A program made the position numbers and the translations under genes. The notes under the pieces were generated by a model. That model ran no database searches. It was not told where the DNA came from and worked only from the letters and a program-made list of their open reading frames with translations. From Candidatus Peregrinibacteria bacterium (GTDB lineage: Bacteria > Patescibacteriota > Gracilibacteria > UBA1369 > LOWO2-01-FULL-3): DNA of 64,000 bases. The stretch covers positions 13,030-77,029 of the forward strand of contig JABILX010000003.1 in NCBI GenBank assembly GCA_018654255.1, read 5' to 3'. Below are positions 1 through 64,000 of this stretch, piece by piece (the stretch's first letter is position 1; each line of letters begins with the position of its first letter).

Positions 1-1361
1 TCGAACACGACGAAGGCCCACACACCCAATCAGAAAGAACCGACCTATACATAGAACACGCAGAAAAACTTCTCGAGAGCGGCCACGCCTACCACTGCTT
101 CTGCAGCAAAGACCGCCTAACAGAACTCCGAGAAAAACAAGAGTCAGCTAAACAAGCCACAATGTACGACCGCAAATGTGGAGAAATTCCTCTAGAAGAA
201 GCTAGAAAACGAGTAGCAGCCGGTGAACCACATGTCATCAGACAAAAAATCCCATACGAGAACCTGAAATTCAAAGATCTAATCAGAGGAAACGTACAAT
301 TCGATGGAAAAAACGTCGACGACCAAGTCCTAGTAAAATCAGATGGATTCCCAACTTATCACCTCGCAAACGTAGTCGACGACCACTTGATGGAAATCAC
401 ACACGTTATCAGGGGTGAAGAATGGCTCCCATCTACACCAAAACACATCTTCCTTTACAAAGCATTTGGTTGGGAGGTCCCAGAATTCGCACACATTCCC
501 CTATTATTAAACAAAGATCGCAGCAAACTCTCAAAACGCCAAGGACACGTTGCCGTGGAAGACTATATAAAGGAAGGATATCTCAAAGAAGCTATTCTAA
601 ATTTCGTAGTATTCTTGGGTTGGCATCCAGGCGCAGGCGATGAAAACGAACTTTATACCTTAAAAGAGTTAGAGAAAGCTTTTTCAATAGATCGCGTCCA
701 CAAATCAGGCGCAATCTTCGATATTGAAAAATTGGATTGGTACAACTGGCTATGGCAAAAGAAACTCTTCAACGAAGAAATGCAAAAAGTAGCCAACGAC
801 CTAGACGACAAAGTACAGATCGAAGAAGTAAAACGCGGCACGTTCAAATATAAGTTCTCTTCAAAAGAACTTCACGACAAATTCCTAGAAGAAAAAGGCA
901 CCGCTCTACACAAAATCTGCGAAGACTACCTCTCAGAAGACCAAAAAAAAGCCGATCAAACCATTCTCAACCAAGCACTCATAGCAAATGAAGAAAAAGT
1001 TCTAAAATCCGCAAAAGAAATCGCAGAACACTTGGACTACTTCTTCACCTTCCCAGACTTCGAGATAAACCTGATAACACACGAAAAAATGAAGGTGGAT
1101 CTGGCTCAGGCCAAGTCTGCCCTAGAAGCTTGCATACCAGTCCTAGAAAAAATCTCAGAAGAAGACTGGACAGAAGAAAATCTAGCAAAACTCCTCATCG
1201 ATCTCGTTCAAAAACTCGAGATCAAAAACGGCCAACTCCTCTGGCCAATCAGAGTCGCCCTCACAGGACAACAATTCTCTCCAGGAACATTCGAGATGTT
1301 ATGGGCACTGGGAAAAGAGGAATCTCTCGATCGCATCAACAACACAATCACTAGAATGTAG
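1..1361 (+). CDS. gltX: glutamyl-tRNA synthetase, 5' end cut by window edge
   Basis: Frame 3 is open from the window edge (..SERTDLYIEHAEKLLESGHAYHCFC..) into ORF 162..1361. It has a class I aaRS core with a KLSKR (KMSKS-type) motif and GlxRS-like blocks (DGFPTYHLANVVDDHLMEITHVIRGEEW). Confidence 0.9.
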   Translation, partial: EHDEGPHTQSERTDLYIEHAEKLLESGHAYHCFCSKDRLTELREKQESAKQATMYDRKCGEIPLEEARKRVAAGEPHVIRQKIPYENLKFKDLIRGNVQFDGKNVDDQVLVKSDGFPTYHLANVVDDHLMEITHVIRGEEWLPSTPKHIFLYKAFGWEVPEFAHIPLLLNKDRSKLSKRQGHVAVEDYIKEGYLKEAILNFVVFLGWHPGAGDENELYTLKELEKAFSIDRVHKSGAIFDIEKLDWYNWLWQKKLFNEEMQKVANDLDDKVQIEEVKRGTFKYKFSSKELHDKFLEEKGTALHKICEDYLSEDQKKADQTILNQALIANEEKVLKSAKEIAEHLDYFFTFPDFEINLITHEKMKVDLAQAKSALEACIPVLEKISEEDWTEENLAKLLIDLVQKLEIKNGQLLWPIRVALTGQQFSPGTFEMLWALGKEESLDRINNTITRM

Positions 1362-2238
1362 TGACCTTTCGCCACTTTTGAACCAACTGATCTATACCAC
1401 ACCGCTCACCACTTCGATCCGGCTCTTTACGCACTCGCCACAATCCTGGCTTTTTTGCCTCATTTGCTATCAAACCACGATGCGCTAAATCATGATGCCC
1501 AGAACACAGACAAAAAATCCTATCAGGGTCATGACACTTCACCCGAGAAAAACCATCTGCATGATGGAGTTCACTAAATTTCCTACCACAACCAGGAACC
1601 ACACATCTATAATTATCTCTACGCTTAACAAATCTTTCTATAGGTTTAGGAATGTGCCTCGATTCAGATTGAACTGGATCAGGTTTTTTATTCTCGATTT
1701 TTTCTTTTCTCAGATTCAGCAGTTTCTTTATTGCATCTTCCCATTCACCACTTCCTTTGAGCTTCTTCAACTGGTCCAAAACCTGAGGATTCAAAGACAT
1801 TGTCACAAAAACTTTTCCAGGTTGGATTTCCGCGCCGGCGCGGGCTGACTCGGTTCGCATACCTTTGACAAAAACCTCAACTTCACGCCTAGACATGCTC
1901 TCTACCCTGTCGGCCCACTCTTTTTCAGTCTCTTTCGTAGCAACAGTAGCCACAGGCTTAACAGCCCACAGCCCCTTACTGCTAACAACCTTCTGAAGAG
2001 CAGGCATACCCTCAATCTTCTTCAAAATCCGCAAACTCTCATCAACTTGATTCCGACTCAACCCAGCAATCTTCGCCGCATATTCATAAAGACTTCCAAA
2101 ACCTTTCTTCCGCCAAACTTTATACCTATCAATATCCGGCAAAAGCAACATACATCGCCTCGCCCACTCCTTAGCATTCTTGCCACATTCCGAGAACTGA
2201 ACATGCAACTCAACAGACCTAGCATCAATTTTTTCCAT
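1351..2238 (-). CDS. HNH endonuclease domain protein
   Basis: The C-terminus carries an HNH signature (CVVPGCGRKFSELHHADGF...CLCSGHHDLAHRG). The likely start is MEKIDARS at 2238; the ORF track allows 2295. It overlaps the gltX stop by 11 nt, convergently. Confidence 0.7.
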   Translation of the reverse strand: MEKIDARSVELHVQFSECGKNAKEWARRCMLLLPDIDRYKVWRKKGFGSLYEYAAKIAGLSRNQVDESLRILKKIEGMPALQKVVSSKGLWAVKPVATVATKETEKEWADRVESMSRREVEVFVKGMRTESARAGAEIQPGKVFVTMSLNPQVLDQLKKLKGSGEWEDAIKKLLNLRKEKIENKKPDPVQSESRHIPKPIERFVKRRDNYRCVVPGCGRKFSELHHADGFSRVKCHDPDRIFCLCSGHHDLAHRGLIANEAKKPGLWRVRKEPDRSGERCGIDQLVQKWRKVTTF

Positions 2239-2560
2239 TTTCAAATTGGTTAAAAAATAAAAAGAACCAGCAACCTGCCTCAGCAAGTCACACAATAAAT
2301 TTGAATTAAATATAAAATGGACAGAAATAATCGAACTCTACGAAAAACCATCACAATTTTAACACAAAAAAGTCCTCCCAAACAGGTTAAAATCAGCCAA
2401 ACTAGCAATTTTACAAAGACAAAATCTCGAGACCATGGCGTGGTGAGCAAAAACTCACCCTTTAGCAAAACAAAAGCCTCGCCTCGACAACCACAGAACT
2501 TTAATTTATTATGAAGCTGAGAACAAAACAACCAGAACAACCTAAACAAAAGAACACCAC

Positions 2561-2875
2561 ATGAACTTCTTCGAACTAGAACTCATAATCAAGCACGTCA
2601 GAAAAAACAACACTTGCCCGCATTGCGACAAGAGATACAACATAAAAGATATTTCCGTTCTAGCTTCAACACAGCAAGAGTGCCTTCTTGAGCTCAAATG
2701 CCAATACTGCAAAAAAACAGCTCTAACAGATATAATCGCATCATCAAAAGCCCCAAAAGACGTCCCATTAATCAACCAAATGATAAAAAACGGGATAACA
2801 GACAACGACATCTTGGACGTCAAAAACTTCCTAGAAAGTTTCGATGGAGATTTTAAAAAACTTTTTCATAACTAA
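2561..2875 (+). CDS. hypothetical small zinc-ribbon protein
   Basis: 104-aa ORF with two CxxC pairs (CPHCDKRY ... CQYCKK). Its A/C-rich codon use matches neighbouring + strand genes. Confidence 0.45.
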   Translation: MNFFELELIIKHVRKNNTCPHCDKRYNIKDISVLASTQQECLLELKCQYCKKTALTDIIASSKAPKDVPLINQMIKNGITDNDILDVKNFLESFDGDFKKLFHN

Positions 2876-3845: not shown

Positions 3846-4859
3846 ATGCATAATTTTCTTCGCAAAGTTCGTGCTTCAGCAAAAGCAAACCCAAAAAAAA
3901 TCGTTTTCCCCGAGGGAGAAGAGCCTAGAATTTTAGAAGCAACTGAAACGATTATTAACCAAGGATTTGCAAACCCAATCCTAATCGGAGATCCAAGAAA
4001 GATGAAATCTCGCGCAAAAAAACAAAACCTCAAAATCGACTGGGGAAAAGTCAAAATCATCAACCCAAAAACTTCAAAATTAACAGAGAAATACACAGAA
4101 GCTTTCGCAGAAGCCAGAAAAGGAAAAGGCCTCACCAAAGCAAAAGCAAGAAAAATTCTCAAAAGCAAAGAAGGTATCAACTATTTTGGAACAATGATGG
4201 TACACACAGACGACGCAGACGGAATGGTTTCCGGAACAACATTCTCAACAGCAAACACAATAAGACCTGCCCTCCAAATAATAAAAACCGAAGAACAATT
4301 CCACACAGTCTCAGGAATTTTCTTCATGGTTCTAGAAAAACGACTTCTTTTATTTGCAGACGCGGCAATCACTATAGCGCCTGAATCTCACGATTTAGTC
4401 GACATCGCAGAAGACACAGTAAAAACAGCAAAAGCATTCGGAGTAGACCCAAGAGTCGCCTTCCTATCATTCTCAACAAAAGGATCCGCAAACCACCCAA
4501 GAGTCGATCGCGTCCGACAAGCTGTAAAAATGTTCAAACACGAATACCCAGACGTAATTTGTGATGGAGAAATGCAAGTTGACGCAGCTCTCGTACCAAA
4601 AGTCGCAGAAAAAAAATGCCCTTCATCCCCTATCCAAGGAAATGCAAACATACTCGTATTCCCAAACTTAGAAGCAGCCAACATTTCATACAAACTAGTA
4701 GAACGCCTAGCCGGTGCAAAAGCTATCGGCCCATTGCTCCAGGGACTACGAAAACCAGTCAATGACTTATCCCGAGGATGCAGTGCAAAAGACATAGTAT
4801 CAGTAACAGCATTCACCTGCTGCCAAGCACAAGGCACGTGCGAATATTGCGTCTCGTAA
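3846..4859 (+). CDS. pta: phosphate acetyltransferase
   Basis: PTA_PTB-type sequence (KKIVFPEGEEPRILEATE..., DADGMVSG, LVFPNLEAANISYK), directly upstream of ackA. Confidence 0.85.
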   Translation: MHNFLRKVRASAKANPKKIVFPEGEEPRILEATETIINQGFANPILIGDPRKMKSRAKKQNLKIDWGKVKIINPKTSKLTEKYTEAFAEARKGKGLTKAKARKILKSKEGINYFGTMMVHTDDADGMVSGTTFSTANTIRPALQIIKTEEQFHTVSGIFFMVLEKRLLLFADAAITIAPESHDLVDIAEDTVKTAKAFGVDPRVAFLSFSTKGSANHPRVDRVRQAVKMFKHEYPDVICDGEMQVDAALVPKVAEKKCPSSPIQGNANILVFPNLEAANISYKLVERLAGAKAIGPLLQGLRKPVNDLSRGCSAKDIVSVTAFTCCQAQGTCEYCVS

Positions 4860-4881
4860 AACATAACTTAAGCTCCCTCAG

Positions 4882-6060
4882 ATGAAAAAAATCTTAGTAA
4901 TAAACTGCGGATCTTCCTCTCTGAAATTTGAGTTATTTGTAGGAGGAAAAGAACCAACTTCAATCGCAGAAGGATTGATAGACGGAATAGGAAAAGACAA
5001 CTGCCGAGTCACATTCAAAAGTTCAGAATTAAACCTCGGACTAAGAAGCAATTTCGCAAACCACACAGCGGCAATCAAGTATGCTTTTGATGCTTTGTTA
5101 AAATCAAAATCAATCAGTAAACTTTCTGACATTTCAATCGTAGGTCACAGAGTAGTGCACGGCGGAGAAAAATACCAAAAAGCCACAAAGATCGACGCAA
5201 AAGTCCTAAAAGAAATCAAAGCCCTTTGCCCACTTGCACCACTCCACAATCCAATCAACTTAAAAGGAATTGAAGCCTGCAAAAAACTACTCCCACGAGC
5301 AAAACAAATCGCTGTCTTTGACACAGCATTCCACCAAACACTCAACGAAAAAACATATCTCTACGCCATCCCTCAAGAGTTCTACACAAAACACAGAATC
5401 AGAAAATACGGCTTCCACGGAACCAGCCACAAATACGTCACAAATGAAACAATCAAGCTTCTCGGCAAAAAACCAAACCCAAAGATAATCACATGCCACT
5501 TCGGAAACGGCTCATCGATAACAGCTTCCAAAAGCGGAAAAGTCGTAGACACAAGCCTGGGCTACACTCCACTCGACGGAATCCCAATGGGAACTCGCTC
5601 AGGATCTCTAGACCCAACGATTCCACTCCGCCTTCAGCAACTCAAAAAATGGACCCCAGCAAAAACAGACGAATTCCTCAACCGCGAATGTGGACTCAAA
5701 GGTCTTTCTGGAATCTCATCTGACATGCGAGAAATATACGCAGAATCATTAAAGAAAAACCCAGACGCACTCCTAACGATCGGCCATTTGGCATATCACT
5801 CAGCTAAATACATAGGTTCATACATAGCCGCATTAGACGGCCTCGACGCCCTCGTCTTCACAGCCGGAATGGGCGAAAAAGCTTTCTACGTCAGAGAACA
5901 AATCTGTGAACATTTCTCACACCTTGGCCTTAAACTAGATAAGAACAAGAACAAGAAAAACGACAAACTCATATCAACAAAATCAAGTAAAGTAAAAGTC
6001 TTCGTCATTCCAACTGATGAAGAATATCAAATAGCAAAAGAATCACTTCAAATAAAATAA
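4882..6060 (+). CDS. ackA: acetate kinase
   Basis: Canonical N-terminus MKKILVINCGSSSLKF, plus HRVVHGG and GFHGTSH motifs. Confidence 0.92.
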   Translation: MKKILVINCGSSSLKFELFVGGKEPTSIAEGLIDGIGKDNCRVTFKSSELNLGLRSNFANHTAAIKYAFDALLKSKSISKLSDISIVGHRVVHGGEKYQKATKIDAKVLKEIKALCPLAPLHNPINLKGIEACKKLLPRAKQIAVFDTAFHQTLNEKTYLYAIPQEFYTKHRIRKYGFHGTSHKYVTNETIKLLGKKPNPKIITCHFGNGSSITASKSGKVVDTSLGYTPLDGIPMGTRSGSLDPTIPLRLQQLKKWTPAKTDEFLNRECGLKGLSGISSDMREIYAESLKKNPDALLTIGHLAYHSAKYIGSYIAALDGLDALVFTAGMGEKAFYVREQICEHFSHLGLKLDKNKNKKNDKLISTKSSKVKVFVIPTDEEYQIAKESLQIK

Positions 6061-6074
6061 CCTCAACCTATCCT

Positions 6075-7559
6075 ATGAAACTAAACGCAACAAAAATTCC
6101 AATTCGCGTTGGAAAAAAATACATCGCCGTTCTAAATGAAAAACGCGCACACTTCCTCGACCTCCACGCAGGCGATCGTGTAATCCTCAAAAAAAGCAGA
6201 GTCCCTTCCATTCGTGCAATTCTAGAAATAACAGATAACAGCGAACTCAAAGAAACAGAAATTGGACTATACGAAGAAACTTGGGAAAAACTCAAAGTCG
6301 ACAATTACGGTGAAGACGTAGAAATTGGAATCGCAAAAAAACCAATCTCAACCACATACATCAAAGAAAAATTAAACGGCAAACCCCTCGACGCAAAAAA
6401 GATCAACGAAATCATAAAAGACGTCGTAAATGACGATCTATCTGACATCGAAGTCTCATACTTTGTATCTGGATGCTATGTTCACGGACTCTCAGACAAA
6501 GAAACCGCAGACCTCACCCGAGCAATCGTAAAAAACGGCTCACAAATCAAATTCGGAAACCGCATCGTCGCTGACAAACATTGTATCGGTGGAGTTCCAG
6601 GGAATCGAACCACAATGATCATCATCCCAATCATCACAGCAGCAGGAATCGTTATGCCAAAAACTTCATCAAGAGCAATCACAAGCCCATCAGGAACAGC
6701 AGACACAATGGAAGTTCTCGCAAACATAACCAACGACGCACCAAAACTCAAAAAGATCGCTCAAAAAGCCGGAGGATTCATAACTTGGGGCGGTGGAGTC
6801 GACCTCGCATCAGCAGACGACAAAATGATCAAAGTCCGCCATCCCCTATCTCTAGACCCTCAAGGAATGCTTCTCGCATCAATCATGGCAAAAAAATTCT
6901 CAGTCTCTTCAAATCACGTTTTGATAGACATTCCTGTAGGACCTCAAGTCAAAGTTAAAACCAAGAAAGAAGGAAAAATCCTCAAAAAACGATTCGAAAC
7001 TCTCGGTAAATATCTCGGAATGAAAATCAAAGTAATTTTCAGCAACGGCGACCAACCAATCGGAAACGGAATCGGCCCCTCTCTCGAAGCAATGGACGTC
7101 CTGAAAACTCTAAAAAACGAACCAGACGCACCACAAGAACTCAGAGAAAAGTCTATAATGATGGCAGGCCTACTCCTCGAATTATGTGGCAAAGCAAGAA
7201 AAACCAGAGGAAAAGCAATGGCACGCCGCTTACTTGATTCAGGCAAAGCATATGAACAAATGATGAAAATCATCAAAGCCCAAGGAGCAAAACGAACCAA
7301 GCTCCGACCAGGCAAATTCTCAAAAATCATAAAAGCAGGCAAAGCAGGCCGCATCACAGGAATCAACAATAAACTAATCGCACACATCGCAAGAACAGCA
7401 GGCGCTCCAAAAGACGCAGAAGCTGGCGTATATCTCCACAAAAAAATAGGAGCAACGGTCACAAAAGGAGAACCACTCTTCACCATCTACGCAGACATCG
7501 AAGAACGTATCGGTTACACATCTCAATACCCACTCAACAAAGCCTACACAATCAAATAA
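6075..7559 (+). CDS. AMP phosphorylase / thymidine phosphorylase family (archaeal-type, with N-terminal extension)
   Basis: 494 aa with the pyrimidine-nucleoside phosphorylase core (DKHCIGGVPGNRTT, TSSRAITSPSGTADTMEVL). It has the ~90-aa N-terminal domain typical of AMP phosphorylases and sits next to an eIF-2B-family isomerase. Confidence 0.75.
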   Translation: MKLNATKIPIRVGKKYIAVLNEKRAHFLDLHAGDRVILKKSRVPSIRAILEITDNSELKETEIGLYEETWEKLKVDNYGEDVEIGIAKKPISTTYIKEKLNGKPLDAKKINEIIKDVVNDDLSDIEVSYFVSGCYVHGLSDKETADLTRAIVKNGSQIKFGNRIVADKHCIGGVPGNRTTMIIIPIITAAGIVMPKTSSRAITSPSGTADTMEVLANITNDAPKLKKIAQKAGGFITWGGGVDLASADDKMIKVRHPLSLDPQGMLLASIMAKKFSVSSNHVLIDIPVGPQVKVKTKKEGKILKKRFETLGKYLGMKIKVIFSNGDQPIGNGIGPSLEAMDVLKTLKNEPDAPQELREKSIMMAGLLLELCGKARKTRGKAMARRLLDSGKAYEQMMKIIKAQGAKRTKLRPGKFSKIIKAGKAGRITGINNKLIAHIARTAGAPKDAEAGVYLHKKIGATVTKGEPLFTIYADIEERIGYTSQYPLNKAYTIK

Positions 7560-40403: not shown

Positions 40404-40404
40404 T

Positions 40405-50951: not shown

Positions 50952-51704
50952 ATGAATCAAGTAACAATTTTTTCCATTGTAATACTAATAGCGATCTTTC
51001 TTTTATATCGCTACGTTGAACGTCGCCTGAATCAAATTGAAAACAGAATTGCTCATAAGGACGTGGTTCCGGAAAACAATGAAGCAAAAAATTCTTTAAC
51101 GGCTGTTGAAAAAAAATTGAGCGCAATCCAAAACTTGTGCTCGCCGCTTTTTTTGTTAAATATTTTCGACACATGGAGCAGTCTTACAACCGATGACTCA
51201 ACACAATTAGAGCTATTGGTTAAAGATTTTGAAGAAGCGGAAGAAACAAGAGTGTCGAAAATCAAAGGGGTAAATGATACCGAAAAAGAGGAACTCCAAG
51301 AATATGAGGAAAAGCATCCTAATAAAAAAGAGTTTGAACCTAGTCATAGCCTGAAATGCGACATACTCGCGGCGAGCACAGCAATAGTAATCAGACAAAC
51401 ACTGCATGAGCAACTAGAAGCCGTTAAAGAACTGTTTTTTGATGTCTTAAATGGGAAAATCTCCATTAAAGAAGCACGTCAAAAATCAATAAAAATCGCT
51501 TCAAGAAAAGACATTCATGATCTGGAAAACACTTTGTATTCACCAGAACTTTATGCCAATGATATTGAAAAGGATAAGGACATTCACCCTGAAATCAAAA
51601 AACAGTTCAAAGAATTTTTTGCAATGTATCAAAAACGTTGGGGCGACAATAAGTGGAAAGATCGCTTGAAATGGTACAAGGAAATGGAAAATTACGAAAA
51701 TTAG
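50952..51704 (+). CDS. cassette 1 ORF, hypothetical (N-terminal TM, coiled region)
   Basis: 250-aa ORF that starts 73 nt after the junction at 50879. It is AT-rich and lacks the host A/C bias. Confidence 0.6.
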   Translation: MNQVTIFSIVILIAIFLLYRYVERRLNQIENRIAHKDVVPENNEAKNSLTAVEKKLSAIQNLCSPLFLLNIFDTWSSLTTDDSTQLELLVKDFEEAEETRVSKIKGVNDTEKEELQEYEEKHPNKKEFEPSHSLKCDILAASTAIVIRQTLHEQLEAVKELFFDVLNGKISIKEARQKSIKIASRKDIHDLENTLYSPELYANDIEKDKDIHPEIKKQFKEFFAMYQKRWGDNKWKDRLKWYKEMENYEN

Positions 51705-51748
51705 TTTTGGTTATTATTCGCCTTCGGCGAGGGAATTTATTGTTACAT

Positions 51749-51879
51749 CAGCTAACAATGAATAACTGGTTCACTCACTCCGCTACGCTTCGTTCGTTCT
51801 CCCAAATTTGGCGGCGGTATGTCGCTCCGCTCCAAATTATACCGCCACCAAACTTCAGTTATTCATGGACGTTATACGC
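51749..51879 (+). repeat. attC-like site 1
   Basis: CAGCTAAC-a-ATGAATAACTG ... TTTGGCGGCGGTAT/ATACCGCCACCAAA ... CAGTTATTCAT-ggac-GTTATACGC. Its R'' is the exact complement of GTTAGCTG at 50878. Confidence 0.6.
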
Positions 51880-52027
51880 AATTCAAAAAATATTTTTCTT
51901 TTAATAAGGAATTTTGACAGGCTTTTTAAAAGGGGAATAAATTTGATTTTTAATTTATAATGAGGGGGATAGCGGTATTTTCTCCGCTTCTCTCCGAAAA
52001 TGATTTATAATTTAACCAAAAATTATT

Positions 52028-53248: not shown

Positions 53249-53426
53249 GGAGTTTTGGATTTTGGGCATTCACCTCTAACCCCTCTGCCCAAAATCCAAA
53301 ACAAAAAACAAATTTATAATTATTGTATGAAAAGTCTGTCAAAATGAAATTGAATGAAAAATATTTTTTGAACTTCTCGCTATCGCTCGACCACATTGCA
53401 TTCTTGCTCCACTGCGTTCCGCTCGG

Positions 53427-53545
53427 GGCGTATAACACAGTATATCTGGCTCGCTCGTGCCCTTGCTCGACCCATATTTGCCAAAAACTCATTGATTTTA
53501 AAAGGAATTTTGGCAAACATCAGATATACTGAAACGTTGTACGCC
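53427..53545 (+). repeat. attC-like site 2
   Basis: GGCGTATAAC-a-CAGTATATCTG ... TTTGCCAAAA/TTTTGGCAAA ... CAGATATACTG-aaac-GTTGTACGCC. Its R'' GCGTATAAC is the exact complement of GTTATACGC at 51871. Confidence 0.6.
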
Positions 53546-53943
53546 ATAACAAAAAGCCCCAAGTTCCAAATAGCATTTTCAGTAGCAGATAGAGTTTAAA
53601 GTAGAAATTAACACATCACTGAGTCAACCTCCTGTAAATCAAGTCACCTTAACTTACAATCTGTCTGTCACTTCTCTCTAAACACCAAGCCCATTTAGAA
53701 CAAGTTGACAGTGACCATAAACCTTTGAGAAAGCTTACAACCAGACTTATTATTGCCATCCAAAACTTGAGGCACAACTAGCGACAAATAATTCCAATTT
53801 ATCACCACTTGCGCCCCGAGTTTCGCGTATTTTTTAAAGATCACTACAATCATAGTACCACATTTATAAAACAAAATCAAGTATTTTCAGACAAAAAATC
53901 CTTAATGTTTGGGCTTTTTGTTACACGCTCACTTCGTTCGCTA

Positions 53944-54132
53944 GCGCACAACAAAAGTATATATGGTTCACTCACGTTTTGCGATTCTTAAATGAAGGCA
54001 AATCCAAAACTCCCCTACTTTTAACCAATCCTTTACATCTCCACCGTTCTCCCAACTTGTTGCGAGGTGATCCCGACAAGTCGGGACCATTGTACCTCAC
54101 CCCAAGTTCACATATACTTTGGCCGTTGTGTG
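53944..54132 (+). repeat. attC-like site 3
   Basis: GCGCACAAC-a-AAAGTATATATG ... CATATACTTT-ggcc-GTTGTGTG. Its R'' matches the complement of the preceding R' (GCGTACAAC) at 8/9. It shares GGTTCACTCAC and CGTTCTCCCA blocks with site 1. Confidence 0.55.
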
Positions 54133-54190
54133 ATATAATGAAAAAAACAAAGTTTATATTTTTGATAATTTATCCATAACCAAATAAAAA

Positions 54191-54616
54191 ATGGAACAAA
54201 ATCAACCAACACAAACCAAAAAACCTCCGCTCGGCATAAAAATAATGGCCGGAATATTACTCCTGATAGGTCTCGTTATAGGATTCGATGTGTTGTCTTC
54301 AATTAGCGCAATACTGTTTGGTGGATGGATGTTAGTCACAGGCATCGTCGCATTAATTCTCTTCATTTACACAGAAAAAACCAGCATCAACATGTTCAAA
54401 ATGAAATCGAGCAACAAAATAAACTACTACATTGCCCTCTTTCTGGATATGCTATATATATGCTCAATGCCATTAAGGGAAACCCTTATACTTACACACG
54501 AAACACCATCAGCAGATACATTTCTAGTAGCAATAATATTAACGGTAATTGTGTTCGCAGTCCTTGCACTACCATTCTTTTTCATTACTAGAAAGCACAA
54601 AGATCTATACGTATAG
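54191..54616 (+). CDS. cassette 4 ORF, hypothetical 4-TM membrane protein
   Basis: 141-aa hydrophobic ORF that starts 65 nt after the junction at 54126. Confidence 0.55.
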   Translation: MEQNQPTQTKKPPLGIKIMAGILLLIGLVIGFDVLSSISAILFGGWMLVTGIVALILFIYTEKTSINMFKMKSSNKINYYIALFLDMLYICSMPLRETLILTHETPSADTFLVAIILTVIVFAVLALPFFFITRKHKDLYV

Positions 54617-54668
54617 AATAAATTATCAAAAATATTAAGCCTGCTTCGCAGCCTTATTTTTCATTACA

Positions 54669-54792
54669 GCACACAACAGAGTATGTGCGGCTCGCTTCCG
54701 CAAGCGGAGCACTCACCCATATTGACCAGTGATACGCTTTCAGCGTATTTTATCACTGGTCAACATCGCATACGATCCGACCGTTGTGTGCC
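54669..54792 (+). repeat. attC-like site 4
   Basis: CACACAAC-ag-AGTATGTGCG ... TTGACCAGTGATA/TATCACTGGTCAA ... CGCATAC-gatccgacc-GTTGTGTGCC. Its R'' is the exact complement of GTTGTGTG at 54125. Confidence 0.6.
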
Positions 54793-54861
54793 ATTTCAGG
54801 TTTGACAAATCCCATAATAAACATATATAAATCTACTCCTATTCTATAAACAAGATTAAAC

Positions 54862-55068
54862 ATGACAAATACACCCGATCAAGAAACAGAGATAACCATA
54901 GATGAGAGAGTCGCTGTCCAAGTCGACTTGGAATTAACAACAAGAGCTATAAAATGTCAAACAAGACTAACCCCAGACAGTAAAACAACCATAGTCAAGG
55001 TAAGCACATCTGTAGAAGATCGTGTAAGACAACTGCTATCAAGCCTAGGATTCAAAATAACTAAATAA
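54862..55068 (+). CDS. cassette 5 ORF, hypothetical small protein
   Basis: 68-aa ORF that starts 78 nt after the junction at 54784. Confidence 0.45.
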   Translation: MTNTPDQETEITIDERVAVQVDLELTTRAIKCQTRLTPDSKTTIVKVSTSVEDRVRQLLSSLGFKITK

Positions 55069-55169
55069 TTATGAATGAAATTTTAGAAGGGGTTTCTTTC
55101 GAGCCACTATCACCTCGGCAAAAGCCAGCTTGTATAAATAACAGCGCTGAACACAAATGCGACAATCCT

Positions 55170-55314
55170 GCCACACAAGAAGCAGTACACGGAATTAATA
55201 GAGTTAGATGTTGTGATGAAGATCCCTGCAAGATAAGAGCAGCAACCCTCGCAAAAATAAGTAAAGAATTGCAATAATTTTGCAACATCGTACACACACC
55301 GACCGTTGCGCACC
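55170..55314 (+). repeat. attC-like site 5 (right arm clear, left arm degenerate)
   Basis: The right arm CATCGTACACACACCGACC-GTTGCGCACC matches the family. The candidate left box GCCACACAAG matches the complement of the preceding R' (GGCACACAAC) at 8/10. Confidence 0.4.
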
Positions 55315-55387
55315 ATAATCCCGAGAAATTATTTGACATAACCCCATTATTCACGTATAGTTGCCCCTATTTTTTTAAACCCTATTT

Positions 55388-55630
55388 ATGTCAGAATCAG
55401 ATAAGATTCTTGTTGTTACTGAGAAAGGCGCTATACCTCTTCCAGAAACTTCAGCACTCATCCCTAGGATAGAAGCAATCATTGATGATCCAGAAACCAA
55501 AGCTATTAAACGAGATGAAATTGGTGACATAATCGTAAATACAGGAACCCTGCTGCTAGCTATTAAGCCCCAACAACTTGAACTCAGGGCAGAAGAAGTC
55601 CTAAAAGAGATATTAGGCGACAGAGACTAG
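55388..55630 (+). CDS. cassette 6 ORF, hypothetical small protein
   Basis: 80-aa ORF that starts 82 nt after the junction at 55306. Confidence 0.45.
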   Translation: MSESDKILVVTEKGAIPLPETSALIPRIEAIIDDPETKAIKRDEIGDIIVNTGTLLLAIKPQQLELRAEEVLKEILGDRD

Positions 55631-55636
55631 GCGGCT

Positions 55637-55725
55637 TATTCACCCATGTTTGACGAGGGTAAGTCTTTCGGCGTATTTTACCGCTGTCAAACATCACACA
55701 ACAGATGTATGTGCGGCTCGTTTCC
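55637..55725 (+). repeat. rearranged attC-like fragment (central block followed by a left arm)
   Basis: TTCACCCATGTTTGAC...GTCAAACATC is homologous to the centre of site 4. It is followed directly by CACACAACAGATGTATGTGCGGCTCG, near-identical to the left arm of site 4. No right arm follows. Confidence 0.45.
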
Positions 55726-55768
55726 TTCGTTAGCAGAAATATCGTTTACAACACTTAACAATAAAAAC

Positions 55769-56185
55769 ATGAACAAACCAACTTCACATTTTGAAGAAGG
55801 AGGTCCAAGCCAAGAACCACAAAGCACCTCCGAAAGAGAAAAACAAGAAAGAGTAGTAGAAATTCTTAGGTTAGTAGAAAAAATTAATGAATCAGGTGCG
55901 CCTTTGCCTTTTCCTGGCATTCCTCAAGAAACTTATTTAAAAATGAAGGCAGATGAAAATGAGGCTCCTGGTTATACTACGCCAATAGACGAAATAATAT
56001 TTAGATGTCAAAGAGAGGGTATAAAAGTAATCACAGGAAGACATCCAGGATCAGGCGGCGTCTTTATTTTACCAGCAGGCAGTGATGATTGTGACATGGA
56101 CAGCATTCTCCCCCGCCAATTAGCAGTTGAGGCTGTTGAAAATGAACATCTTGCAAGATTGATACAGCTAAAAACTAAAAATTGA
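55769..56185 (+). CDS. hypothetical protein
   Basis: ORF from MNKPTSHFEEGG. The upstream part of track ORF 55646.. overlies the attC-like fragment and is not counted. Confidence 0.45.
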   Translation: MNKPTSHFEEGGPSQEPQSTSEREKQERVVEILRLVEKINESGAPLPFPGIPQETYLKMKADENEAPGYTTPIDEIIFRCQREGIKVITGRHPGSGGVFILPAGSDDCDMDSILPRQLAVEAVENEHLARLIQLKTKN

Positions 56186-56210
56186 TTGATTTTTTTAACA
56201 AAATAAAAAC

Positions 56211-56501
56211 ATGGAAAAATACTTTATCTACACCATTACATTTCTATACAGCATTGGAGGACTAATAACGTTCGCTGGATTTTTTCCAACAATGAAGGAC
56301 CTATGGAAAGGAAAACCAAGTGCAAATATTAATACCTACATCATATGGGGAGCAACTACCTTCATCACATCACTATATGCAATTTTTGTCGTAAAAGACT
56401 TGCTTTTCAGCTTGGTAATTAACCTTCAATTAGTAGCATGCGTGATTGTTTTGATCTTGAGACTAAGGCTAAAAGTAAAAAAGTCCAAAAAGACTCCATA
56501 A
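56211..56501 (+). CDS. hypothetical 3-TM membrane protein (PQ-loop/SemiSWEET-like shape)
   Basis: 96 aa with three hydrophobic helices and an FFPTMKDLWKGK loop. The similarity to PQ-loop proteins is only impressionistic. Confidence 0.35.
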   Translation: MEKYFIYTITFLYSIGGLITFAGFFPTMKDLWKGKPSANINTYIIWGATTFITSLYAIFVVKDLLFSLVINLQLVACVIVLILRLRLKVKKSKKTP

Positions 56502-56526
56502 AACCTCATTCCATCTACACCACAAC

Positions 56527-57936
56527 TCACGCCGCCAGAACCCCCTGAGGACCAGACAACACCTTCTCAAACTTTCCAACGTGTTCCAAGAAGTTCTGAG
56601 ACGGAACATTCCACGTCCCAAAGTGCTGTCGATAAAAAGGAATGTCTCCAGCCACTTTGTTACCTTTAGCCTCCAAAAAGAAACATACATCAACTGCCTC
56701 AGACCCAAGAGCCTGCAAAGCCGGAATAATCTTTCTTAAAGTAGTTCCCGTCACCGCATCATTTTCACAAACCAAAATCCTTTTAGCTTCAGTTACAGGC
56801 TTGAAATTCATGCCAACATTTCTCCAGACAGGTTCTCTGTTTTCCCATTCTCGATCTTTTTGATGCCACTCAATATACCTAACATTTCCTCCCATTAATT
56901 CACAAAGCGCAGCCATAGAACATCCAGCATTCATAACACCAACGATCAAGTCATATTGACTAATCAACTCCCCAGCAGCATTAATCATATCAGGCCGAAT
57001 CTCAGTATTCATACTCTCTAGAGGCAATCCTACCTGCCCAGCATAATCCAAAAAGGACCCAAGATTCCCGCGCAATCTATCCTTCACCAAACCATCAACA
57101 AAAGAATCCTTCAAAACTGTCTCAAAATCATCTCCATCACAATCACCATCATGATATTTTAAATAACGAGAAATATAAATCTCCATTTCCTCTTCCGTAA
57201 AAGTACGATAAATCTCGGGAGGTATATGGTAATCATATTCATTCGAATAAACAAACCCTCTGCCATATCTCTTAAGCTCATCATCCAGACCCAACATATT
57301 AAAACCATCTGCAATACCATAAACATTCTTGGAATTTACAAATAATTCATTGATAAATAAAAGGAATTCTTTTAATTCAATTTGCTGTTGACCATCAAGA
57401 GGTTCACCAGATTCATACGAATATTCTTTTCTTACATGATTAACTAATTTTTTAGCCAACTCCATTGAAATATCGCGCCTCGTTTCAGGAGAGTAAGTGG
57501 AATCAAGATACCTATTTCCACATTTTTTAAGACTATCATCAGGAAACCTTTCAGCCAACATATCTCCATCGACAACAACACCCAACAAATCTGCTCTACA
57601 AACAGCACGTACCTCATCAGCCAAATCAAAATCTCCAAGGGCAAGTATCCTATCAACTTCCTCCCCAACTCCCTCCACAATCCCCTCAACGAGATAACGG
57701 TCTCTCAATGCATAAATCTCAACCATCATTTTCTCCAGTTTTGTTTGAAAGCCAGGGATAAAACGTTTTGAAAAAGCAGCAATTTCCCCATCATTTCTAA
57801 TCATGAGTTTAGAAGCCCTGTCATCCTCTCCAAGCATCCAAAAAGCCTCAACATTACCGGTACTTCGAATCTGATGAAGCACGTCACCTGGTTGAAAATC
57901 AATGGTCTCCGAATTTGTAGGCGGTCGATTTCTCAT
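56527..57936 (-). CDS. protein with C-terminal phosphoribosyltransferase-like domain and unknown ~300-aa N-terminal region
   Basis: The PRTase PRPP-loop-like motif RILVCENDAVTGTTLRKI lies about 65 aa from the C-terminus, preceded by YDLIVGVMNAGCSMAA. Confidence 0.5.
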   Translation of the reverse strand: MRNRPPTNSETIDFQPGDVLHQIRSTGNVEAFWMLGEDDRASKLMIRNDGEIAAFSKRFIPGFQTKLEKMMVEIYALRDRYLVEGIVEGVGEEVDRILALGDFDLADEVRAVCRADLLGVVVDGDMLAERFPDDSLKKCGNRYLDSTYSPETRRDISMELAKKLVNHVRKEYSYESGEPLDGQQQIELKEFLLFINELFVNSKNVYGIADGFNMLGLDDELKRYGRGFVYSNEYDYHIPPEIYRTFTEEEMEIYISRYLKYHDGDCDGDDFETVLKDSFVDGLVKDRLRGNLGSFLDYAGQVGLPLESMNTEIRPDMINAAGELISQYDLIVGVMNAGCSMAALCELMGGNVRYIEWHQKDREWENREPVWRNVGMNFKPVTEAKRILVCENDAVTGTTLRKIIPALQALGSEAVDVCFFLEAKGNKVAGDIPFYRQHFGTWNVPSQNFLEHVGKFEKVLSGPQGVLAA

Positions 57937-58045
57937 GAATTTTAATAAGCAAAAAACAAAGAGAAGATATTGTACCAGAAACCCTCAAAAAAGCAACCCC
58001 TTTGAAAAACTCCGCTCAAATTTGCGAGGGATCTCCCTTTGACAT

Positions 58046-58393
58046 ATGATAACACCAATGAACACATTAGAATTCCTCAGACAGTTTCGTTTCAGTGGTT
58101 ACGCTATCTTTGATTTAGTAGCAGCCTTACTTGGTATTTATTTGATATCACCTCTCCTATCCAAACTCTTTTTGAAAATCAGAATTGATATTCCAAAACT
58201 CAACTGGCTATATTTGACCTTACCAATAGGAATACTCGTTCATCTCTTGGTTGGAGAAATGACCCCCATGACTGTAGATTTCCTGAACATACACGACCAT
58301 TACATTTTGAAAATACTGACGATCGGATTATTAGTCCTAGGATTGAGAAACATAAAAATAAGGAAAAAACACAAAGCCACTAACCAACGTTGA
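58046..58393 (+). CDS. hypothetical membrane protein
   Basis: 115 aa with three to four hydrophobic segments. Confidence 0.4.
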   Translation: MITPMNTLEFLRQFRFSGYAIFDLVAALLGIYLISPLLSKLFLKIRIDIPKLNWLYLTLPIGILVHLLVGEMTPMTVDFLNIHDHYILKILTIGLLVLGLRNIKIRKKHKATNQR

Positions 58394-61313: not shown

Positions 61314-61314
61314 T

Positions 61315-63822
61315 TTAGTCCAACTCCACCTCAGCAACATCACTCAAATCATCCATTTGATTTGCTTTGACCATATCTGATGACGTCGTGTAGAAATAAT
61401 CCCCAATATAAAGGATTCTTTCCAGCCATTTCGTATAGTCATATCCATAGTTATACTCCGCGTCAAAATTATCGTAATGCGTTACAGTTCCTCTTAGCTC
61501 AAAACCATCTTCCAAACTGACATCATAAACATAAGCTCCCTGGAATGTATAATCACCGTACGACCAACTATCCACACCAAAATCTTTCACATCCTGCGGA
61601 ATTTCAGCAATAGTGATAGGAAAGGCCATAATTCCTTTGTCCTTATCAAAAAGCAAAGCTTTGTGATTCCAACTCAGCTCACTATGAGTCCCACGATCCC
61701 CTATCACGACCTTGTGCATCTCTTCAGGATTTTCAACATCTGAAACATCAAACATCGCAAGCTTCACACCCTGATACCAAGCTCCCTCAACTCCCATATC
61801 ATCCATCTCTTCTTCCGTCATAGCATCAGTATCCAAACCAAATCCAATCAAATGATCTTCGTCATAAGGATGCAAATAATCGCTGAATCCAGGAATCTTC
61901 AATTCACCAAGAACCTCAGGATCAGTAGGATCCGAAACATCAATCACAAACAAAGGATCAATCGTCTTGAAAGTCACCATATAAGCTCGATCTCCAAGGA
62001 AACGAACAGAATAAATTTCCTCTCCAGGAGCAAGACCTTCAACACTTCCAACAACCTCCAAATCATCATCTAAGACATATAAATTATTCAAAGATGAATC
62101 ATCCCACGTCTGACCTTCAGTGGTTGCAATTCTGAAATATCCGTTATTCTCATCCATTGAGAATTGATTCAACGTTCTACCAGACACAGTCCCACTTCCA
62201 AGATACTCCATGTCATCATATCCAAGCCCAACTTTGTGAACAATCGTTTCATCTTGCCAAGAACTCGTCCATCGATCCCAGAAAACAGGATTGTAATACT
62301 GCTCAGCTATATACAAATTATCCCTAGATGAATAAACATTCAAACTAGATCCCAAAACAGCTTCACTCTTCACCACAGAATCACTATCAGATATATCAAT
62401 CGCCGAAACAACCATATAATCAGAGCTACTTGAACCAGGAACATACATCACATCTCCACAACTACAAGTCGCCTGAATATCATCAACCGCACTGTCAGCA
62501 TAAAGAGGAACAACATCCTCATACGGCATATCATCCCAATCTTCCTCAACCCAACTCCAATAATTCGAATATTTATTTGTAATTAAATAAAGAACATCAT
62601 CAACTTTTCTAGAAGTTGAATAATACCCCTCAAAATCAACCTGCCTCTCAACAACAGGCTCGCTTCGATCACTAATATCCAAAACGTAAACCTCTACCAA
62701 ATCCGTATACACATCACCATATCCCCTATCGTCTACCTCAGAAACAAAGTAATCCAAATATTCATAAGCACTACCAATCACAACCAACCTATCCCCATCA
62801 ACATACATTTCACTCGGATAGAAATCTTCATTACCAAAAGTCACTACAGCCACTTCAGCCATTTCTTCAGGTGGATAAGCCTTGATAATCCTCACAGTAC
62901 TATCCTTGATAGTATAAACATATTCAGCATCATTCTTTACAATATCAGCTTCATCAACTCCTTCTACTTGGATGTTCGTAGTTGAGAATTCAGCGCCACC
63001 TTCCGCACCTCCCTCAGCTCCAGCCGTTGAAACAGACTCCTCAGCCATATCCATCTCCATCGCAGCAGGCTCAGCAAACATAATATCATCCTCCCACATA
63101 CCTCTCATAGAAACATTATAAGAGTCCATATTCACACCCAAGAAACCCTTCAACTCCTCACAATCATCAAAAGCAGTCAACTCCGCAACCACAGTCTCCC
63201 CACTCATAACCCCCTCGTAAGTATTTGAAAGACCGTAAAAATTCTCACTATCAATTTTATAAATCATATCCGACATTTCAGCGCGGGTCATGGTTTTACC
63301 AAAATCTTCGACCGACGCTGGAATCGCATTCAAACCCTCCAACGAAACAACAAACTGTTGAAACCAATTATCATCTAAATCTAAGTCCAATTCCAACCCA
63401 AGCAAATTCGCAACCATCTTGCTCGCCTCAGCAAAATTGATTTCTTGCTCAGGCCTGAAAGTCCCATCATCATACCCCTCAACAAACTTCAATTCAGCAG
63501 CCTTACATATATAAGGAGCAAACCATTCATCAGAAACATCCTCAAAACAATCCTCTCCCTCCTCTTCATACTCAGTCGCACCCATCACAATCTTCAGAAA
63601 CTCAGCACGATTGATATTATCGTCAGGCTTGTACGTCCCATCGTCGTAACCATCCACAACTTCATTATCTTCAAGATAATTTACAGCATTCAAATTTGGA
63701 TGGTCATAAGACACATCAGAAAAAGCCGCCGCCGAATCCATTACCGGCAGAAATGCCGCCAACAAGGCAATAATAGAAAAAATAGCGATCAGAACTTTTG
63801 TAAAAGTTTTCTTTTTACTCAT
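61315..63822 (-). CDS. secreted SLH-domain protein with C-terminal beta-propeller domain (COG4880-like)
   Basis: The likely start is MSKKKTF (63822) with a signal peptide. SLH repeats (DGYDDGTYKPDDNINRAEFLKI) are followed by the block FLGDRAYMVTFKTIDPLFVIDVSDPTDPEVLGELKIPGFSDYLHPYDEDHLIGFG, typical of the beta-propeller family. Confidence 0.7.
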   Translation of the reverse strand: MSKKKTFTKVLIAIFSIIALLAAFLPVMDSAAAFSDVSYDHPNLNAVNYLEDNEVVDGYDDGTYKPDDNINRAEFLKIVMGATEYEEEGEDCFEDVSDEWFAPYICKAAELKFVEGYDDGTFRPEQEINFAEASKMVANLLGLELDLDLDDNWFQQFVVSLEGLNAIPASVEDFGKTMTRAEMSDMIYKIDSENFYGLSNTYEGVMSGETVVAELTAFDDCEELKGFLGVNMDSYNVSMRGMWEDDIMFAEPAAMEMDMAEESVSTAGAEGGAEGGAEFSTTNIQVEGVDEADIVKNDAEYVYTIKDSTVRIIKAYPPEEMAEVAVVTFGNEDFYPSEMYVDGDRLVVIGSAYEYLDYFVSEVDDRGYGDVYTDLVEVYVLDISDRSEPVVERQVDFEGYYSTSRKVDDVLYLITNKYSNYWSWVEEDWDDMPYEDVVPLYADSAVDDIQATCSCGDVMYVPGSSSSDYMVVSAIDISDSDSVVKSEAVLGSSLNVYSSRDNLYIAEQYYNPVFWDRWTSSWQDETIVHKVGLGYDDMEYLGSGTVSGRTLNQFSMDENNGYFRIATTEGQTWDDSSLNNLYVLDDDLEVVGSVEGLAPGEEIYSVRFLGDRAYMVTFKTIDPLFVIDVSDPTDPEVLGELKIPGFSDYLHPYDEDHLIGFGLDTDAMTEEEMDDMGVEGAWYQGVKLAMFDVSDVENPEEMHKVVIGDRGTHSELSWNHKALLFDKDKGIMAFPITIAEIPQDVKDFGVDSWSYGDYTFQGAYVYDVSLEDGFELRGTVTHYDNFDAEYNYGYDYTKWLERILYIGDYFYTTSSDMVKANQMDDLSDVAEVELD

Positions 63823-63847
63823 AGAAATGGGGTTAAGAGGTTGGAGT

Positions 63848-63893
63848 TCGGACTTAACTATAGGCTTTACCTGAGTCCGAACTTGACTATAAA
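63848..63893 (+). promoter_or_regulatory. 46-bp promoter-like unit with tandem boxes, locus 2
   Basis: TCGGACTTAACTA (63848) and CCGAACTTGACTA (63877) have the same 29-bp offset and a similar spacer (CTTTAC.T.AGT) as 41652-41697. The unit ends in TATAAA. Confidence 0.4.
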
Positions 63894-64000
63894 AAAGCAC
63901 CCACAAGTCTACAAGAAACTGCGAAAAAAGGCTAGAGAGGAAGAGGACGGCCCCTGCCCTTCCCTTCCAAAAAACTTTCCGCTAATATAACGAGCGCCCA

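Follow-up and report, generated by a model that had tools for sequence, protein, structure and literature searches.

One DNA strand is rich in A+C along the entire chromosome of a Candidatus Peregrinibacteria bacterium and of its close relatives, and the lack of a switch at an origin or terminus suggests that the chromosome is copied in an unusual, largely one-directional manner. The bias concerns the whole strand and the whole chromosome, is seen at neutral sites whatever the orientation of the genes, is specific to a clade and has reached equilibrium, and the main chromosome of this clade breaks Chargaff's second rule over its whole length. The window considered here is a stretch of 64,000 nt from assembly GCA_018654255.1 (contig JABILX010000003.1, positions 13,030-77,029 of the forward strand), whose dnaK gene served to confirm the affiliation to Peregrinibacteria.

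The top strand of the window contains 23,823 A, 15,830 C, 14,159 T and 10,188 G, which corresponds to 61.96% A+C, a GC skew of -0.217 and an AT skew of +0.254, about 60 SD off parity. An earlier sequence-only reading had proposed such a bias from four 60-nt lines of 67-75% A+C. An exact recount of these lines gives 75%, 66.7%, 66.7% and 71.7%, all from the upper part of a distribution in which the 60-nt lines average 62.0% A+C, with at least 66.7% in 35% of them and at least 50% in 92.8%. The bias itself is borne out by the whole-window statistics, and the figure at neutral sites is stronger than the one initially given. Indeed, at four-fold degenerate sites outside the cassette region, read on the top strand, plus-strand genes show A.537, C.251, G.048 and T.164, and minus-strand genes A.525, C.258, G.060 and T.158. 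Since top-strand A+C thus amounts to 78-79% in both gene orientations, the bias of the window is a strand-specific mutation bias and not an effect of transcription or coding. The claim that the bias belongs to the strand also holds at third codon positions, where skews are equal in sign and size in both orientations, and a single gene can illustrate it, as the minus-strand ComEC-type gene has an A+C-rich top strand, so that the bias does not follow the coding strand (Table 1). Intergenic DNA in the window is 59.5% A+C. GC skew is negative and AT skew positive in every 4-kb window within the 64 kb, in agreement with the earlier statement that no skew switch occurs there. The restriction of the earlier A+C percentages to DNA outside the cassette region was equally appropriate, as A+C at four-fold sites drops to 62.8% in the cassette genes (50.9-58.4 kb); these genes are probably recent arrivals that so far fall short of the equilibrium composition of the strand.

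Table 1. Features of the 64,000-nt window and their skew values (positions are those of the window)
Feature	Position	Strand	Evidence and skew
Phosphotransacetylase, acetate kinase, nucleoside phosphorylase-like gene	3846..7559	+	Pfam; top-strand GC3 skew -0.66 to -0.75, AT3 +0.54 to +0.56
Ribonucleotide reductase large subunit	24234..26537	+	GC3 skew -0.56, AT3 skew +0.59
ComEC-type competence protein	29651..31024	-	Pfam PF03772; top strand 72% A+C, GC3 -0.76, AT3 +0.58
Fructose-1,6-bisphosphatase, small ORF, RsmH/MraW methylase	39048..41355	-	Top-strand GC3 skew -0.62 to -0.79
dnaK	46651..48615	+	GC3 skew -0.59, AT3 skew +0.53
Cassette-like accessory genes	50952..58393	+	Skew weak or absent; GC3 +0.01 and +0.08 (first two genes); four-fold A+C 63%
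SLH/beta-propeller surface protein gene	61315..63906	-	Top-strand GC3 skew -0.55, AT3 skew +0.54

The same bias extends over the chromosome. The genome under study (1.24 Mb) is assembled in nine contigs, none of which shows a sign change, and its closed relative of the same family, G008 (998,424 bp), has a GC skew of -0.30, with 280,830 C and 151,950 G. In G008, more than half of the bases are A+C in all 99 10-kb windows and in 994 of the 995 4-kb ones, four-fold GC skew lies between -0.53 and -0.81 in all 40-kb bins, and cumulative GC skew falls monotonically, in a near-linear manner; no short replichore of at least 4 kb is hidden in it. The genes of G008 are divided 55% to 45% between the strands and skew is equal in both orientations, so that gene distribution does not explain the disparity. 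AT skew has whole-genome values of +0.175 in this genome and +0.15 in G008, and four-fold values of +0.43 and +0.22, respectively. By means of 446 reciprocal best hits, the nine contigs are collinear on G008 with the same strand A+C-rich, and once they are ordered by synteny, as C3-C8-C2-C4-C7rc-C1-C6rc-C5rc-C9, 121 of 123 10-kb windows are A+C-rich. The two genomes share 49% amino-acid identity and their synonymous sites are saturated, and in the 83 orthologues whose strand differs between two genera, the skew is that of the strand on which they now lie. The orientation-independent four-fold composition, the unskewed cassette genes and these orthologues all count for a mutational, strand-bound bias. 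Moreover, because synonymous sites are saturated between genera, the pattern is an equilibrium feature rather than a relic of inversions.

Among relatives, the one-signed bias is found in four genera of the family and, in weaker form, in a second family (G025), whose closed genome keeps its sign at 20 sampled points. Elsewhere in the class, the closed genomes G065 and G071 show a clear sign change, and in 13 further closed genomes the counts of G-runs and C-runs are roughly balanced (1:1 to 2.8:1, with 6:1 in G106 on the basis of 14 runs). Genomes G020, G174, G033 and the outgroups were represented by sampled sequence, and skew sign in the sampled relatives was mapped by G6-run pattern matches, whose counts in G020 and G174 were too low to be useful. 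The relatives form a graded series that comprises bipolar, half-skewed and fully one-signed chromosomes.

One reading of the window would be that nothing unusual occurs, and that it is the lagging strand of a conventional, very strongly skewed chromosome whose sign flips elsewhere. The polarity of the step at dnaN, described below, is canonical and puts the window on the lagging-type side. However, the sign never flips in the closed chromosomes G008, which was fully read, and G025, at the 20 sampled points, nor in contigs that span both domain borders in two other genera (C1 and C3 of this genome and the 591-kb C6 of genus G020). This account, which the sequence-only reading had itself named as one that could overturn its claim, does not explain the data and is very unlikely. 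Errors of assembly, in which one replichore is inverted at repeats so that a bipolar skew becomes one-signed in closed assemblies, do occur in published 'complete' genomes (PMC7111523), but this explanation is barely credible here: the assemblies of this genome, G008, G020 and G025, which represent four genera and are presumably independent, are collinear across both borders, and in three of the four the half that would have been inverted has a much weaker GC skew rather than a mirror image of the other.

Although the sign is constant, the magnitude of the skew is not, and the chromosome has a two-domain structure with a step at dnaN. The two halves of this genome have four-fold GC skews of -0.60 and -0.20, with AT skews of 0.485 and 0.384, respectively. 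A step model explains 41% of the variance in GC4 skew (40.8%, with 39.6% for a triangular and 35.9% for a sawtooth fit); in G008, each of the three fits explains less than 10%. Within +/-15 kb of the intergenic region between dnaN and rny, GC skew rises from -0.57 to -0.09 (p = 3e-20), with a concomitant fall in AT skew. This step has the polarity of a canonical origin, as G and T rise to its right, and we infer that it marks the origin. The window lies 136-200 kb to the left of it (contig C3:213.3-213.6 kb), in the strongly skewed half ('Domain I'), so that its top strand corresponds to a conventional lagging-type strand. The two borders are syntenic, about half a chromosome apart, and recur in G025; in G020 the terminus-side border is a gradual change and the dnaN border rests on few G-run matches. 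In both G020 and G025 the GC skew of the weakly skewed half is about zero. Neutral sites show the G+T versus A+C skew of classical bipolar chromosomes regardless of gene orientation, but the sign reversal at two points is absent from G008, from the sampled G025 and from the contigs of this genome, where only magnitude steps. Recent inversions were considered as a source of the weakly skewed half and rejected, as strand-switched orthologues are skewed like the others and the pattern is common to genera with saturated synonymous sites. Genomes of the same genus are themselves only 67-80% identical in DNA, which leaves synonymous sites saturated for a polarised substitution spectrum.

Our preferred reading, to which we give a probability of roughly 45%, is that a chromosome-wide offset arises from a fork that goes one way round the chromosome in many or most rounds, on top of an ordinary bipolar layer. 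Strand-specific mutation pressure has given the circle an A+C-rich strand with a G+T-rich complement over its full length, and two superimposed layers are visible. The bipolar layer has the form of ordinary bidirectional replication skew, with an origin-type step at dnaN-rny and a step of terminus type on roughly the other side of the chromosome; the window, being left of the origin-like step, has a lagging-type top strand. The larger layer has one sign chromosome-wide, with four-fold skews of about -0.4 (GC) and +0.43 (AT) in this genome, and because of this offset the second replichore never flips sign. It may represent the footprint of a copying mode in which the fork proceeds round the entire chromosome in a single direction, for which unidirectional theta, rolling-circle and strand-displacement replication are candidates, and which may account for many of the replication rounds of this genome and for almost all of those in G008. 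Precedents for this reading are the unidirectional replication of Pseudoalteromonas chromids with one-signed GC skew and the similar proposal made for UBA1400 Microgenomates, both treated below. A strand that is repeatedly exposed as single-stranded DNA would lose C (to T) and A (to G) and become G+T-rich; the heavy strand of vertebrate mitochondrial DNA is G+T-rich through such exposure, with C to T and A to G changes. The data refute a simple mix in which leftward and rightward forks share one mutation spectrum, as GC skew comes down to about 0 in parts of this genome while AT skew stays at +0.35 to +0.4. The persistence of AT skew there implies that two modes would have to differ in their spectra. 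Close to dnaN, the skew of the weakly skewed half is more negative than at a distance from it, which is the opposite of what is expected for a rightward fork that fails at random. A more specific version, which we regard as speculative and on balance unlikely, is that the clade copies its sole chromosome in two ways, namely bidirectionally from a dnaN-linked origin and by a displacement of one defined strand, as single-stranded DNA and all the way round the circle, that resembles that of mitochondria or rolling circles. If this were true, the related genera would be stages of a shift from bidirectional to one-directional copying in free-standing bacterial chromosomes.

The same two-domain pattern can be read differently, with ordinary bidirectional replication from a dnaN-linked origin and an offset that comes from a separate, non-replicative process always treating the same strand differently, for example a recurrent transfer or export of one particular strand in single-stranded form, or an undescribed strand-specific repair or damage. 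Two domains whose borders are roughly antipodal and conserved in synteny, together with an origin signature of the canonical type at dnaN, are what normal bidirectional replication would give, and the different scaling of GC and AT skews between the halves points to two mutational processes. Nevertheless, replication and conjugative transfer are the only processes known to traverse an entire bacterial chromosome directionally, the searched gene content gives no hint of such a process, and its frequency would need to be similar to that of replication in order to give GC4 skews of -0.4 to -0.7; we thus consider this explanation possible but doubtful. At the other extreme, replication may be purely unidirectional theta, with origin and terminus adjoining, as hypothesized by Kadnikov et al. 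(2020) for other bacteria, and the two levels may come from other regional effects. The profile of G008 speaks for it, being almost flat (position explains 4-9% of the variance between genes) and near zero only in about 3 kb around dnaN-rny, as if the rightward fork stopped at once, and one-signed skew matches unidirectional replication in Pseudoalteromonas chromids (PMC7858055). What this account leaves over is a half-chromosome whose GC skew is down to one third in this genome and to about zero in G020 and G025, delimited by syntenic borders half a circle apart, and it is accordingly improbable. Unidirectional copying in many or most rounds, combined with the bipolar layer, remains the reading that we favour.

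In the window, 40 genes lie on the plus and 19 on the minus strand (calls based on ORFs, many of them confirmed by Pfam on both strands), so that the earlier estimate of about 70% of genes on the A+C-rich strand holds locally (68%); genome-wide it does not, with 53% in this genome and 55% in G008. The further suggestion that the A+C-rich strand is the gene-rich, leading strand is not supported: the genome-wide majority is only 53-55%, tRNA genes favour neither strand, the 16S rRNA gene and dnaA are on the G+T-rich strand, and the step at dnaN has canonical polarity. On the other hand, with 45-47% of the genes, the G+T-rich strand does not carry the gene majority of a G-rich leading strand. In the strongly skewed half, 62-70% of conserved genes are on the A+C-rich strand, an excess largely due to one ribosomal-protein cluster. 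The S10 ribosomal-protein operon is on the A+C-rich strand in the same half as the 16S rRNA gene and dnaA, and as these are oppositely oriented one highly expressed set would be head-on for either fork direction. Gene orientation along the chromosome shows no clear two-part pattern that could indicate fork direction. The strand bias also reshapes proteins, as had been proposed from the window, and it does so genome-wide: proteins encoded on the G+T-rich strand have an excess of V, D, G, M, W and F, and those encoded on the A+C-rich strand an excess of Q, T, I, P, K, N and H.

No cluster of DnaA boxes of the E. coli-type consensus was found anywhere, including upstream of dnaA and dnaN, and there was no match to the core dif consensus. 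Intergenic conservation between two genera was limited to tRNAs, rRNA and CIRCE operators, with no origin or dif element, and dnaA is far from both domain borders. Gene loss was rejected as a cause for want of an obvious candidate, since the primase DnaG, uracil-DNA glycosylase and MutS are all present in genomes with and without the trait.

Sign-switching GC skew is treated as near-universal in bacterial chromosomes and is used for origin finding, assembly validation and the estimation of metagenomic growth rates. In genomes of this Peregrinibacteria clade, skew-based assembly checks and origin finding mislead. In parallel, the clade is a natural system for the study of how strand-specific mutation arises, and its graded series of relatives makes a transition in replication mode directly testable by read-depth profiles.

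The pattern shares features with several known systems. Classical bipolar (Lobry-type) skew has the same G+T versus A+C polarity, is likewise unaffected by gene orientation and steps at an origin-like site, here by dnaN; unlike in that case, there is no sign reversal at origin and terminus and the second replichore has the same sign. Vertebrate mtDNA is a 16-kb molecule with a dedicated strand-displacement mechanism, in which skew follows the time spent single-stranded. Similarly to the present chromosomes, it has one-signed A+C and G+T strands over the whole molecule, most extreme at four-fold sites and independent of gene orientation, and the amino-acid content of its proteins varies with the coding strand; however, the chromosomes described here are 1-1.2 Mb long, encode normal bacterial replisome genes (DnaA, DnaN, DnaG) and show no clean sawtooth gradient in the fits. 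Pseudoalteromonas chromids also have one-signed GC skew over a large circular replicon, and their unidirectional replication has been proven by read-depth profiling and by a dif site adjoining ori, with an evolutionary transition between unidirectional and bidirectional modes within the genus (Xie et al. 2021, PMC7858055). Those chromids are secondary, RepA-initiated and plasmid-derived, whereas here the trait affects the sole main chromosome, with dnaA and dnaN; skew is far larger and standard consensus searches found no dif.

The closest precedent is the G/C-only strand disparity described in 2020 in UBA1400 Microgenomates (Ch65, Ca. Collierbacteria and Ca. Beckwithbacteria), where it covers the whole chromosome and unidirectional replication was proposed as a cause (Kadnikov et al. 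2020, PMC7143001). In both cases, closed chromosomes of about 1 Mb from the candidate phyla radiation show monotonic cumulative GC skew with roughly twice as much C as G on one strand, the two strands carry nearly equal shares of the genes, the C-rich one slightly more, and the trait is common to related lineages and missing from a more distant one. The lineages are different, however, and that same study cites Peregrinibacteria and Gracilibacteria as having typical skew. In addition, AT skew is strong here and absent in Ch65, rRNA occupies the G-rich strand here but the C-rich one in Ch65, and the bipolar step at dnaN and the graded series among relatives are unreported for UBA1400 Microgenomates. 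Collectively with the Microgenomates case, these data suggest that non-canonical chromosome replication may have evolved repeatedly in bacteria of the candidate phyla radiation.

The top strand of the window is rich in A and C (A 23,823, C 15,830, T 14,159, G 10,188; A+C 61.96%, GC skew -0.217, AT skew +0.254), and all of its 4-kb windows combine a negative GC skew with a positive AT skew, in agreement with the sequence-only reading, which had seen no switch in the 64 kb. The four 60-nt lines quoted in that reading were confirmed on an exact recount, but they come from the upper part of a distribution that averages 62% A+C, with at least 66.7% in 35% of lines and at least 50% in 93%. Genes were taken as non-overlapping long ORFs, and Pfam confirms real genes on both the plus strand (Pta, AckA, YidC, ribonucleotide reductase, cysteine desulfurase, DnaK) and the minus strand (ComEC, FBPase, RsmH, a FecR-domain protein, an SLH/beta-propeller protein). 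With 40 plus and 19 minus genes, 68% lie on the A+C-rich strand, close to the 70% first estimated; genome-wide the share is only 53-55%, so that the estimate is local and does not show the A+C-rich strand to be leading or preferred by genes. A CIRCE-type inverted repeat (TTAGCACTC-N9-GAGCGCTAA) precedes the dnaK gene; very few other intergenic elements are conserved across the two genera to which this genome (G000) and its closed relative G008 belong.

The bias is bound to the strand and not to gene orientation, as had been proposed. Indeed, third-codon-position skews (GC3, AT3) read on the top strand of contig C3 have equal sign and size in plus genes (-0.50, +0.47) and minus genes (-0.61, +0.42), and the four-fold sites of the window are nearly identical in composition (A.54, C.25, G.05, T.16 in plus genes; A.53, C.26, G.06, T.16 in minus genes). 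Intergenic DNA of the window has the same bias in weaker form. Amino-acid usage is split by coding strand (V, D, G, M, W, F versus Q, T, I, P, K, N, H), as predicted. The 83 orthologues whose strand differs between the two genera carry the skew of their present strand, and composition is thus set by position and at equilibrium. The accessory cassette genes are almost free of the bias (GC3 +0.01 and +0.08 in the first two), which fits recent acquisition.

The genome spans 1.237 Mb in nine contigs and is about 96% complete; the closest named relatives of its DnaK are from 'Candidatus Peregrinibacteria bacterium', and TGA-recoded relatives also occur in the same class. No contig shows a sign change, dnaA lies within a uniformly skewed one, and 121 of 123 10-kb windows of the pseudo-chromosome are A+C-rich. 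G008, a single contig of 998,424 bp from the same family, was read entire and has no switch either (C 280,830 versus G 151,950; GC skew -0.30): A+C exceeds 50% in 99/99 10-kb and 994/995 4-kb windows, and the four-fold GC skew is -0.53 to -0.81 across all 40-kb bins in both gene orientations. The two genomes share 446 reciprocal best hits at a mean protein identity of 49% and are collinear, which gives the contig order C3-C8-C2-C4-C7rc-C1-C6rc-C5rc-C9, and the A+C-rich strand of every contig matches that of G008. This collinearity is striking at such identity, with small local inversions only, and no origin-symmetric X-pattern rearrangements were found between the whole genomes. Two stretches of C1 are without G008 orthologues, have raw skew near zero or locally reversed and hold the only 4-kb windows of the genome below 50% A+C; both are likely to be insertions specific to the lineage, or giant genes. 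The two ends of the G008 contig map to a part of the window that contains a cassette-like array, and its assembly was probably opened at this hypervariable cassette locus; C3 runs unbroken through the locus, which supports a circular chromosome.

Coordinates of features in the genome under study and its relatives
Feature	G000	G008	Others
Cassette genes	window 50.9-58.4 kb		
Cassette-like array	window 49.8-59.9 kb		
Locus of G008 contig ends	window 46000-64000 (C3:59-77 kb)	start/end	
dnaK	window 46651		
CIRCE-type repeat upstream of dnaK	window 46581-46615		
Near-identical CIRCE copies	C6:9718	861.6 kb; 251.4 kb	
Stretches without G008 orthologues	C1:84-122 kb; C1:0-35 kb		
dnaA	C6:21 kb		G065 193 kb
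dnaN			G065 200 kb
Skew switches			G065 near 0 kb and 480 kb
dnaN-RNase Y step	C3:213,322-213,642	~196 kb	
Opposite border	C1 ~195-235 kb	~705 kb	
Low-skew dnaN spot	C3:212215-215181	195879-198900	L073 10490-13868 (G025)
Inverted block	C1:214-250 kb	695-721 kb	L064 (G025); L121 (G020)

Within this single sign, a two-level model captures 41% of the variance between genes in their four-fold GC skew (GC4), with a strong half (-0.60, 547 kb) that includes the window, dnaA, the rRNA genes and the S10 operon, and a weak half (-0.20, 690 kb); AT skew differs far less (0.485 versus 0.384). One border is a sharp up-step in the 321 bp of intergenic DNA that separate dnaN (minus strand, mfd behind it) from RNase Y (plus strand). 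Within +/-15 kb of this point GC4 rises from -0.57 to -0.09 (p = 3e-20), and four-fold AT skew (AT4) falls too. G and T rise rightward here, the canonical signature of an origin, and the opposite border has that of a terminus; in G008 coordinates the two lie half a circle apart. By synteny, the same borders also divide G025 into its strongly and weakly skewed halves, and the terminus-side border is a gradual change in G020. That the window is simply a conventional lagging strand, the refuting case named at the outset, is highly improbable, and an assembly artefact even more so, both being contradicted by closed genomes, G008 among them, and by contigs of four genera spanning both borders.

Near-zero or positive GC3 at dnaN and the gene(s) beyond its upstream intergenic region recurs in G000, G008 (both rny) and G025 (two other ORFs). 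In G008 near-zero skew is confined to dnaN and rny, with flanking genes at -0.6 to -0.8, and this conserved dip of about 3 kb may mark the origin. At the terminus-type border, some 35 kb of G008 run in the opposite direction to their counterparts in G000, G020 and G025, and this block would be a recurrent rearrangement site adjoining the putative terminus. Read additively, the bipolar layer amounts to about +/-0.2 in GC4 and -/+0.05 in AT4, on a one-signed GC4/AT4 offset of about -0.4/+0.43 in G000, -0.67/+0.22 in G008 and -0.1/+0.21 in G025.

Relatives form a graded series. In the same family, G020 keeps one sign through the dnaA region of its 591-kb contig C6 (about -0.15 rising to -0.5) and G174 has moderate, coupled GC and AT skews. 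In the same order, the closed 1.49-Mb G025, of another family, never flips sign (halves with GC3 ~0, AT3 +0.12 versus GC3 -0.2, AT3 +0.3), and G033 appears weakly bipolar. More distantly, closed genomes of the same class include two with a clear sign change by sampling and G-run/C-run mapping (G065, G071) and 13 with roughly balanced run counts (1:1 to 2.8:1; G106 is an exception at 6:1, on 14 runs), two of which, G056 and G182, were sampled at five points each and have only weak skew. The trait is thus clade-specific. A conventional up-step lies at dnaN in the outgroup G071, not in the outgroup G065, whose adjacent dnaA and dnaN genes sit mid-replichore by run polarity, at neither switch point, so that the position of dnaA is an unreliable marker of the origin within this class. 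The two strands differ in their number of G6 runs in the closed G176 (43 versus 119) and G182 (63 versus 110), possible milder instances of unequal replichores or of a partial one-signed skew.

As for the mechanism, the polarity, in which one strand loses C and A and gains T and G, is that expected of single-strand deamination; the vertebrate mitochondrial heavy strand has the same polarity as the G+T-rich strand here. To our knowledge, replication is the only established directional process at chromosome scale; a separate, non-replicative strand-specific process is a less probable alternative. The replicative reading favoured below has its caveats: UDG, MutS and DnaG are all present, and the rRNA genes and dnaA share a half with the S10 operon in opposite orientations. 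A blend of leftward and rightward forks that share one mutation spectrum is refuted, because AT skew remains where GC skew vanishes, and the gradient within the weak half runs in the wrong direction for a randomly failing fork. Origin, dif and initiator motifs were looked for by standard consensus and by conservation of intergenic DNA, and none was found. In the chromids of Pseudoalteromonas, experiments have shown that a one-signed GC skew marks unidirectional replication (PMC7858055), which was also proposed for an analogous Microgenomates case (PMC7143001). Deamination polarity, the standing of replication and these two precedents together favour a one-directional copying mode that would be superimposed on, or replace, bidirectional replication (probability about 0.45); pure unidirectional theta replication is considerably less plausible.

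Predicted unidirectional replicons are rare, with 77 of 16,103 large replicons in a RefSeq survey, chiefly secondary ones (PMC7858055), and the Peregrinibacteria case adds a further form to the rare phenomenon of chromosome-wide strand disparity. The searchable literature yielded one description of whole-chromosome strand disparity in this radiation, which explicitly labels Peregrinibacteria and Gracilibacteria as typical (PMC7143001), a label that rests on Peribacteria genomes (PMC4736985). Since that earlier case, in UBA1400 Microgenomates, concerns G and C only and unidirectional replicons are rare, the present one is new in several respects, namely the lineage, the strong AT skew added to the GC skew, the superimposed canonical step at dnaN and the graded series in relatives.
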